64,000 nt of DNA. Origin: a bacterium. GTDB lineage: Bacteria; Bdellovibrionota_C; UBA2361; RFPC01. The position numbers were made by a program, and so were the translations under genes. The stretch is taken from the NCBI GenBank assembly GCA_030428205.1, contig JAUIBK010000021.1:2523-66522 (forward strand). Reading direction: 5' to 3'. The notes beneath the pieces are model-generated. The model was given only the letters and a program-made list of their open reading frames with translations, was not told where the DNA came from and did not search any database. Below, one piece after another: positions 50,375 to 51,625 of the stretch. Each line of letters opens with the position of its first letter. The first letter of the stretch is position 1.

Positions 50375-51625
50375 CTAAGAATTTTTAGAATCTTCTGATA
50401 ATAGCTCACGGACTCGCTTGAGATCGTCTTGACTCCAGCGTGAGCCCATCTCACTTTCTAACATGTCGTCGAGCGTCTCAAGTTTATCGTTTTCTCGCGT
50501 ATCAGGTGCCAAATAGATCATTTCATAAGCAATAGCAGCAAGCCTTCGCTCCGTTGGGGCTATCGATTCAAGCGAACGAATAATTGCTTCCTCATCAGTA
50601 CCTAATCCTCGCATCGCTTTATCAAGTATGTTCGCGGTATCGAGGGCAGTCTCTCCGACAAGCGCTCGCGCTACTTCAACGCGGTTCTCCCGAGGAACCG
50701 CCCTTCCAAGCGCGGAACCGAGACCCAGATTGCCCCGGTGGTGAGTTTCTGCCTGAGCAGGCAAGAAATTTCCAACCCCACTCTCTTTAAAATACGTGGC
50801 AGCTTCTAGAAGTGCTTCAGGAGTAACAGATTTTGAGAGGTCCTGGAGCCTTTGAACGATTTCTATAGTCGACTCTTGGTAGATCGCTTCAGCGAGTTTT
50901 GCGGTGTCTAGAGTAGGACTTGATCGCAAATCATCAGGCGAACGCCCCTCCTCCTTGGGTTGAATGCCATCCACCCCTTCAACCGAGAGTAGTTCGCCAT
51001 TCTTAGAATAATGAATGTGAAAAGCGGTTACCGCCATCAACTTACTATCCGGAAGTGTCGGCGCAAGCGGGGTATTGGGGACGCCGTGTTCTTGAACATG
51101 CTTTGCAAAAGCATCAATCTCAAAGGAACAGTTGAATGTACCACCTGGTGTGTCTGACGTTAGCCCGTAAACCACCAAATCCACACTTATTGATTCATCA
51201 GGATGGACCTGCGGCTCAGACATAGAAAGACTAACGGCTGGTCCATACCCACGGCCATTGAGCACAGGTATTGAGAGGACCTCGCCCGTCTCTGGATGAC
51301 TCAACTCGAAACTTAGCCGACCCGGAAGTCCTGCATACTCATTAACTTTTAGATGAGAATCTGGGAAACGGACTGAAGAGGGACTTGTATCCACTGATAC
51401 TCGAGGGAGCACGTCATCGAGACTGACAGAACGTGATACCAGGTCATCAAAAAGATCGGATTGGTTCGCCGAATCACGCTGAGCTTCATCACGAAGATCG
51501 GCAGTATCGGTAGGAACGGTCAACGTATCGATTTGAGATTCTACTTCTGACGAAGGCTCGCTTTGAACACGAGCTGCGGCGCTTTGGCTTAGATGAGTCA
51601 CACTCAGTAATCTCCAAAAGCCCAA
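50375..51625 (-). CDS. Secreted protein with a C-terminal annexin-type repeat
   Basis: DTANILDKAMRGLGTDEEAIIRSLESIAPTERRLAAIAYEMIY matches the annexin repeat consensus (kAmkGlGTDEdaiieil.sRs..qr..i...Y...y). The N-terminal 300 aa are unrecognised. Confidence 0.5.
   Translation of the reverse strand: MGFWRLLSVTHLSQSAAARVQSEPSSEVESQIDTLTVPTDTADLRDEAQRDSANQSDLFDDLVSRSVSLDDVLPRVSVDTSPSSVRFPDSHLKVNEYAGLPGRLSFELSHPETGEVLSIPVLNGRGYGPAVSLSMSEPQVHPDESISVDLVVYGLTSDTPGGTFNCSFEIDAFAKHVQEHGVPNTPLAPTLPDSKLMAVTAFHIHYSKNGELLSVEGVDGIQPKEEGRSPDDLRSSPTLDTAKLAEAIYQESTIEIVQRLQDLSKSVTPEALLEAATYFKESGVGNFLPAQAETHHRGNLGLGSALGRAVPRENRVEVARALVGETALDTANILDKAMRGLGTDEEAIIRSLESIAPTERRLAAIAYEMIYLAPDTRENDKLETLDDMLESEMGSRWSQDDLKRVRELLSEDSKNS

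Follow-up and report, generated by a model that had tools for sequence, protein, structure and literature searches.

The stretch of DNA analysed here (the window; 64,000 nucleotides of the bacterial contig JAUIBK010000021.1) carries on its minus strand an open reading frame (ORF) at 50375..51625, which encodes a protein of 416 residues when read from a TTG codon and ends with a stop codon at 50375-50377. In the C-terminal part of this protein a single complete annexin repeat was identified (residues 330-409; 50399..50638, minus strand), and it was recovered by a hidden Markov model (HMM) of the repeat, by Pfam, by AlphaFold2 (AF2) with predicted local distance difference test (pLDDT) values of 76-95, and by Foldseek. 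Annexins are textbook eukaryotic Ca2+ and membrane proteins. The sequence-only reading of the locus had called an annexin-type repeat (K-G-x-G-T-D-E) and had noted the rarity of annexins in bacteria; the former was borne out, with a K/R-G-x-G-T-D-E loop, by the searches described below, and the latter agrees with the literature (PMC3894181, PMC10882027).

The Pfam annexin model (PF00191) matched residues 331-371 with an E-value of 1.2e-4 (22.5 bits, model positions 3-43 of 66), and this alignment stopped at helix C because two loop insertions push helices D and E of the repeat downstream. The segment DKAMRGLGTDEEAIIRSLESIAPTERRLAAIAYEMIY corresponds to residues 335-371 (50513-50623). When the PDB was searched with phmmer, 45 of the 52 matches were distinct annexin sequences with identities of 35-45% over about 50 residues; the top match was annexin A4, with an E-value of 2.7e-9 that is inflated because the lone repeat of the query aligns to several repeats per target. 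When 1.84 billion representative proteins were searched exhaustively with phmmer (E<=1e-3), 51 non-self matches were obtained, every one of them on residues ~300-397. Eight of these matches were scanned and all eight proved to be Pfam annexins (E 2e-35 to 1.6e-142), two of which also bear the bacterial domain PG_binding_1. A custom repeat HMM, built from 284 repeats of 52 hit proteins and seeded on a canonical four-repeat annexin, gave a single match in the protein, which covered residues 330-409 and model positions 2-67 of 67 at 47.5 bits; this score is partly circular, the source sequences having been chosen for their similarity to the target. With the same HMM, the window's 782 six-frame ORF fragments yielded a runner-up with an E-value of 0.84. 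Judged by its sequence, residues 330-409 form a true homologue of annexin repeats, and the protein is a further example of the rare, already described bacterial annexins.

The five helices of the repeat were predicted by AF2 at residues 325-339 (A), 345-353 (B), 357-372 (C), 385-393 (D) and 399-410 (E). Two loops carry insertions, one of 10-11 residues between helices C and D (LAPDTRENDKLE) and one of four residues, GSRW, between helices D and E, and it is because of these that the repeat unit comprises 80 residues and not ~70. The segment DDMLESEMG...LKRVRELL, taken in the sequence-only reading for a possible further repeat, was assigned by the full-length HMM and MAFFT alignments to helices D and E of this same repeat.

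The structure prediction was carried out with an input alignment of 14 repeat segments of homologues, which covered the annexin repeat only, so that the five-helix prediction depends in part on the homology call itself. The full-length model had a mean pLDDT of 59.9, with four helices at residues 241-297 (pLDDT 52-76) and seven helices at residues 301-410 (pLDDT 76-95), the latter comprising two putatively vestigial helices followed by A-E; the C-terminal fragment modelled alone reached a pLDDT of 76.6 and a predicted template modelling score of 0.71. A five-helix annexin architecture, A to E, is thus predicted, and the repeats in the models number one. When both models were compared with the PDB by Foldseek, the top 50 matches were all annexins or annexin A2 fusion constructs. 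The template modelling (TM) score normalised to the 182-residue query was ~0.35, the value expected from one well-superposed 80-residue repeat, and a canonical two-repeat module is therefore unsupported structurally.

The A-B loop of the repeat reads M-R-G-L-G-T-D-E (residues 338-345; 50591..50614, minus strand) and contains the type II Ca2+-site motif GxGT. Alignments with 21 and with 14 annexin repeats showed G340 to be nearly invariant and G342, T343, D344 and E345 to be invariant. The codon of E392 (50450..50452, minus strand) lies in the stretch L-E-S-E-M-G, and in both the HMM and the MAFFT alignments this residue aligned with the acidic ligand of the D-E turn, consensus SEL(S)G. We take E392 to be the equivalent of Glu72 of annexin A5, in which the type II ligands are the carbonyls of Met28, Gly30 and Gly32 together with Glu72. 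All residues of a putative type II site, G340-L-G342-T and E392, are present in the sequence. The D-E loop of annexins lies membrane-facing, and Arg396 and Trp397 of the D-E insertion should sit on this side of the repeat. The x of GxGT is a leucine, a hydrophobic residue at the loop tip, as is usual in bacterial and eukaryotic annexin repeats (PMC3894181); the principle of the type II site has been described (PMC10882027).

Upstream of the repeat lies a helical region, for which AF2 predicted six helices (residues 236-329; 50639..50920, minus strand), the last two of them (residues ~302-323) with high confidence. When the repeat profile was compared with residues 235-325 by hhalign, a probability of 0.1% was obtained. 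We also built a double-repeat HMM of 143 nodes from 72 pairs of consecutive repeats, and this aligned with the protein only from node 51 onwards, which lies in helix D of the first repeat and corresponds to target residue 304. Shuffling of residues 299-325 reduced the score of this HMM, 44.3 bits for the real sequence, to 40.3+/-1.4 bits, and 8 of 1000 shuffles scored at least as high as the real sequence (p≈0.008); shuffling of residues 236-298 had no effect (336 of 1000 did so). In many pairwise alignments to multi-repeat annexins, the segment LGSALGRAVPRENRVEVARALVGE was aligned as '...L.sELsG.dL.rA.aLl'. Residues ~299-325 are thus probably the last two helices (D-E) of a former preceding repeat, although the signal is weak. 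In these vestigial helices SAL stands in place of SEL, the Glu that would be the Ca2+ ligand being replaced. The segment ALLEAATYFKESGVGNFL (residues 271-288) had likewise been put forward as a degenerate repeat, and this could not be sustained, since neither hhalign nor the double-repeat HMM shuffles detected any similarity to annexins there. Upstream of residue ~300, no second or third annexin repeat was found by the repeat HMM, by hhalign or by the double-repeat HMM. The repeat count of the protein is one.

The N-terminal part of the protein falls into two regions. Residues 1-90 (51356..51625, minus strand) form an acidic, Ser/Asp-rich region (S 19%, D 13%) with a net charge of -9, which was predicted to be disordered from its composition and from AF2 (pLDDT 25-47, with a lone helix at residues 44-64). 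Residues 91-235 (50921..51355, minus strand) form a β-rich region, in which AF2 placed strands at residues 92-217 with patchy pLDDT, up to 77-86 in the blocks 131-150 and 201-220. For residues 1-300, a word-indexed search of 5.8 billion proteins returned the target alone, no homologue was found in the exhaustive phmmer search, and no match was obtained in Pfam, NCBIfam, PHROGs or PADLOC. On these searches residues 1-300 are an orphan region, in agreement with the sequence-only reading, which had left the ~300 N-terminal residues unrecognised. That reading had also described them as secreted and Ser/Asp-rich; the composition was confirmed for residues 1-90, and secretion was not, no signal peptide having been found by hydropathy. 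In the Kyte-Doolittle analysis no signal peptide or transmembrane segment was detected (19-residue maximum 0.81, N-terminal 9-residue windows <=1.1), and there is no lipobox because the sole Cys is at position 166. Secretion by Sec or Tat and lipoprotein status are accordingly unsupported, although the protein might leave the cell along a non-classical route. All three parts of the protein are acidic, their net charges being -9, -11 and -12.

Two similarities in the N-terminal part were pursued and rejected. Residues 119-228 aligned with the C-terminal region of a GH98 endogalactosidase (PDB sequence) with an E-value of 0.27, which is not significant. Human S100-A13 (PDB 2h2k, 1yur) aligned near end to end with residues 20-109 (51299-51568), with a phmmer E-value of 0.004-0.008 against 177,635 PDB sequences and a score of 20 bits, whereas 2000 shuffles that preserved the composition never exceeded 7.8 bits. 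In vertebrates, to which the S100 proteins are considered restricted, they are the classical annexin partners, and a true S100-like domain here would place an S100-type module and an annexin repeat on one bacterial chain. However, the Pfam S_100 (PF01023) and EF-hand models matched nothing in this region, and eight other S100 members, each confirmed as S_100 with Pfam, scored at most 0.7 bits, with -0.4 and -1.7 bits for family profiles. Moreover, EF-loop positions 1 and 3 are not conserved, prolines occur in three of the four helix equivalents, and AF2 gave no four-helix domain, only one helix and low-confidence strands in a mostly disordered region. A highly diverged S100-A13-like domain at residues 20-109 is thus most improbable, and we judged the similarity to be due to chance and specific to that protein.

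The start codon of the gene is ambiguous. An alternative GTG at 51599-51601 (V9) would give a protein of 408 residues and is the start used by public gene calls of the identical sequence (P0001). GGAG lies 10 nt upstream of this GTG, and the TTG at 51623-51625 has no obvious ribosome-binding site. A longer N-terminus is impossible because the stop-to-stop frame reaches just 11 codons beyond the TTG. The codon log-likelihood of the ORF was -5.83 in frame and -6.6 and -6.8 in the off-frames, against a reference of -5.77+/-0.06 from 37 genes of the window, and the GC content at the three codon positions (GC1/2/3) was 0.63/0.44/0.41, compared with 0.60/0.42/0.43 for the host; the three parts of the ORF were each host-like in codon usage and GC1/2/3. 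The gene was also found 100% identical to the window in two independent sequencing runs (Logan contigs L001 and L002). The ORF is a real, native-looking gene, since its codon log-likelihood and GC1/2/3 match those of host genes. Paralogues were not found in the window, and promoter and terminator scans and RNA folding of the 3' intergenic region gave no signal stronger than that of shuffled sequences.

A tandem array, (CTCTTG)x7.5, is located at 50228-50272 between two convergent genes. The sequence-only reading had placed it before the gene; as the gene is on the minus strand, the array follows it, lying 3' of the stop codon. Both Logan contigs end at the same base inside the array (window 50243), which indicates that the hexamer array breaks k-mer assemblies. 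Intergenic palindromic elements of the same hexamer were seen at 4919-4990, 41128-41204 and 50228-50320 and constitute a small family of REP-like (repetitive extragenic palindromic) elements. In the first two, a loop of 10-13 nt separates a ~30-nt arm (GCTCTTGCACTT..TCTTGCTCTTGCTCT) from its near-perfect reverse complement; the third has an expanded left arm and a degenerate right arm (CAAGATGAGGAGAAGGTGCAAGAGGA).

The neighbouring genes have housekeeping character and encode LptD, AccD, NIF3, PGK, TruA, Asd, a YjeF_N protein, an amidase and a Peripla_BP_6 binding protein. LptD is a marker of the diderm cell envelope. Upstream on the same strand lie genes for a DUF374 protein and HU and, farther away (3 kb), for a T2SSE-family ATPase. 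No mobile-element or toxin genes were found adjoining the target. Four further ORFs near the target had no Pfam match: 52590-52973 (minus strand, 127 residues), 53553-54503 (plus strand, 316 residues), 58047-58934 (plus strand, 295 residues) and 61595-63109 (minus strand, 504 residues); the first two also gave no match in PADLOC. The T2SSE-family ATPase falls in a 90% cluster with a protein of a metagenome-assembled genome (MAG) labelled 'Bdellovibrionales bacterium', and its other relatives in the genome-contig scan, spread over many phyla, had ~52-54% identity or less. From this hint, the sole taxonomic one and drawn from one gene, the host, an uncultured bacterium, probably belongs to a Bdellovibrio-like lineage. 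The genome-contig scan with the target protein itself gave no match, and relatives of the DUF374 neighbour in the metagenome scan had at most 41% identity. The 96 loci that were fetched included none coding for either an annexin repeat or a protein related to the target.

The best explanation of these data is a lineage-specific modular protein of four parts without a classical export signal. For its function we lean, by a little more than an even chance, towards a C-terminal repeat that would serve as a Ca2+-dependent anchor to anionic lipids for the orphan N-terminal domain; Ca2+ binding, lipid binding, the compartment of action and any role of the N-terminal domain are points that we infer. 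Upon a rise of free Ca2+, the backbone carbonyls of the G340-L-G342-T loop would bind Ca2+, with E392 as the acidic ligand in the D-E turn, and the repeat would bridge through Ca2+ to the head groups of anionic phospholipids such as phosphatidylglycerol or cardiolipin. This would dock the protein reversibly on a membrane surface and carry the orphan N-terminal domain along. The two well-modelled vestigial helices upstream may cover the face that is covered by the partner repeat in multi-repeat annexins.

Several points weigh against the homology and the anchor function outlined above. The Pfam score of 22.5 bits is below the curated gathering cut-off of 25 bits, so that the Pfam check suggested earlier gave a match, and one under threshold, with 41 residues matched to the model; the circularity in the custom HMM scores has been mentioned. 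In the Foldseek comparisons the E-values were only ~1e-2 and the global root-mean-square deviation was 9-12 A over 160-184 aligned columns. The spacing from the loop glycine to the Glu is 50 residues, compared with ~40 in usual repeats, because of the ~10-residue C-D insertion. Canonical annexins have up to one type II Ca2+ site in each of their four repeats; one repeat means one Ca2+ site, so that the membrane may be bound only weakly if the protein does not form oligomers. The free Ca2+ of the bacterial cytoplasm is normally sub-micromolar, and a cytoplasmic Ca2+ switch would therefore need an influx event. The housekeeping neighbourhood offers no functional clue. To our knowledge, bacterial annexins have no experimental characterisation, and a review from 2024 holds the prokaryotic annexins (AnxF) 'in abeyance' (PMC10882027).

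Alternatively, the repeat may be an annexin-derived helical module that has lost, or in this context never had, the binding of Ca2+ and lipid and serves as a structural or protein-protein interaction domain of a cytoplasmic protein with an unrelated function, which we regard as rather unlikely but as deserving real weight. Only one repeat is present, with insertions in two of its loops, and the loss of the acidic ligand in the upstream D-E vestige (SAL) indicates that decay is under way in this protein. The absence of an export signal by hydropathy and the generally low Ca2+ of the cytoplasm fit such a module, and the strong overall acidity of the protein disfavours binding to anionic membranes without Ca2+. 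On the other hand, the complete GxGTDE loop and E392 have been kept, although these are the positions at which decay should act first, as was the case in the upstream vestige.

The anchoring mechanism could also operate in another compartment, if the protein were an exported effector or toxin-delivery protein that leaves the cell by type III or type VI secretion, in vesicles or by release into prey. The repeat would then target a prey or eukaryotic membrane, where Ca2+ is abundant, and the orphan N-terminus would be the active part; we consider this improbable. The clustering of the neighbouring ATPase with the Bdellovibrionales MAG protein hints at a predatory lineage, and published bacterial annexins include some from predators (Myxococcales) as well as fusions to domains of toxins, lipases and proteases. 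A Ser-rich N-terminus that is predicted to be disordered would also fit, and orphan status is common among effectors. However, neither hydropathy nor the Cys position revealed a Sec, Tat or lipoprotein signal, and the adjacent genes include none for a secretion system or toxin immunity, the T2SSE-family ATPase at a distance of 3 kb being the only secretion-related gene found. In addition, searches of the N-terminal region gave no match to any family of toxins or enzymes, and the taxonomic hint comes from a single gene.

The origin of the repeat was addressed by sorting. A prokaryote-type HMM, made from repeats of matches of prokaryotic provenance, scored 44.5 bits end to end, and a eukaryote-type HMM, made from four-repeat annexins, scored 31.5 bits and left helix E unaligned, with the proviso that the sorting of the matches was partly inferred. 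Helix E of the target follows the pattern DLxRxxxLL of prokaryotic-type repeats. By these profiles the repeat appears closest to the prokaryote-type repeats of large multi-repeat bacterial proteins. A recent gain of the repeat from a eukaryote by horizontal transfer, for which the sequence-only reading had proposed a phylogenetic test, is disfavoured because the prokaryote-type HMM fits better, by 13 bits, and because the codon usage is native; we rate it as very unlikely. Vertebrate annexins A4, A5 and A6 were indeed the top PDB matches, but all PDB annexins matched were eukaryotic, and some top matches of the protein search came from eukaryotic transcriptomes (EukProt P0005, P0006). Against this, the codon usage and GC1/2/3 cannot be distinguished from those of host genes, the flanks contain no mobile-element genes that we could find, and the identity to any annexin is ~35-45% at most, over ~50 residues; the limit of this counter-case is the partly inferred sorting of matches. 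A 70-residue repeat is too short for its deep phylogeny to be settled or for a robust tree to be built (PMC3894181). That the motif arose by chance in an ORF which is itself spurious or in decay could be suspected from the sub-threshold PF00191 score and from the 75% of the protein length without a homologue, but can practically be dismissed in view of the 47.5 bits over the full repeat model (next ORF of the window E=0.84), database matches that are all annexins, host-like coding statistics in three segments and an identical gene assembled from two independent runs.

The protein was compared with the annexins described so far. A bioinformatics survey from 2014 reported bacterial annexins, both single-domain and fused, with a conserved GxGTD motif, and counted 34 prokaryotic annexin proteins in 17 species (Kodavali et al., PMC3894181). 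Like members of that set (provisional class AnxF), among them the single-domain protein of Cytophaga hutchinsonii, the target has one PF00191-type repeat, and it shares the GxGTD(E) loop with a hydrophobic x and the fusion to non-annexin regions. The surveyed proteins have a patchy distribution with predatory and gliding hosts, and their functions are predicted only, as is that of the target. The host of the target, apparently Bdellovibrionales-like on one neighbour gene, is absent from the 17 listed species. Whereas the surveyed fusions involve proteases, lipases, toxins and transmembrane anchors, the N-terminal ~300 residues of the target match nothing; the target further differs in its C-D and D-E insertions and in a probable second-repeat remnant made up of the D-E helices only. 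With the eukaryotic annexins A4 and A5 the target shares the five-helix repeat predicted by AF2 and the type II site sequence of G-x-G-T plus a distal acidic residue. In contrast to them it has one repeat and no four-repeat disc, so that the four- or eight-repeat core of AnxA-E is lacking, and no canonical inter-repeat packing (TM ~0.35, rmsd 9-12 A); its helix E is of prokaryotic type and its large N-terminal part is unrelated.

Similar in layout are five metagenomic proteins of 136-153 residues, much shorter than the target. Two of them (P0067, P0068) have an N-terminal transmembrane-like helix and one repeat and are membrane-anchored; the others (P0070-P0072) have a ~85-residue N-terminal region and one repeat with an insertion after helix B. 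All five share with the target the arrangement of another element followed by a C-terminal repeat and a helix E of the type DLxRAxxLL, and their N-termini are unrelated to that of the target, since the exhaustive search gave no N-terminal similarity. One-repeat annexin architectures thus recur in environmental sequence data. Another relative, P0037, and the members of its cluster (988-1021 residues) carry a Joint Genome Institute (JGI) annotation as ppGpp synthetase/RelA-SpoT-type nucleotidyltransferase; if true, this would be an annexin-repeat fusion type absent from the 2014 survey.

Existing knowledge of annexins is unchanged by the present finding. It adds to the bacterial members, from a lineage outside the published list, a clean case of one repeat whose Ca2+-site motif is intact, and a soluble C-terminal fragment of ~180 residues would be handy for a first biochemical test of a lone bacterial annexin repeat. 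Because a probable remnant of a second repeat is visible in the target, the protein suggests that bacterial annexins with one repeat can derive from multi-repeat forms through decay and need not represent an ancestral one-repeat state.

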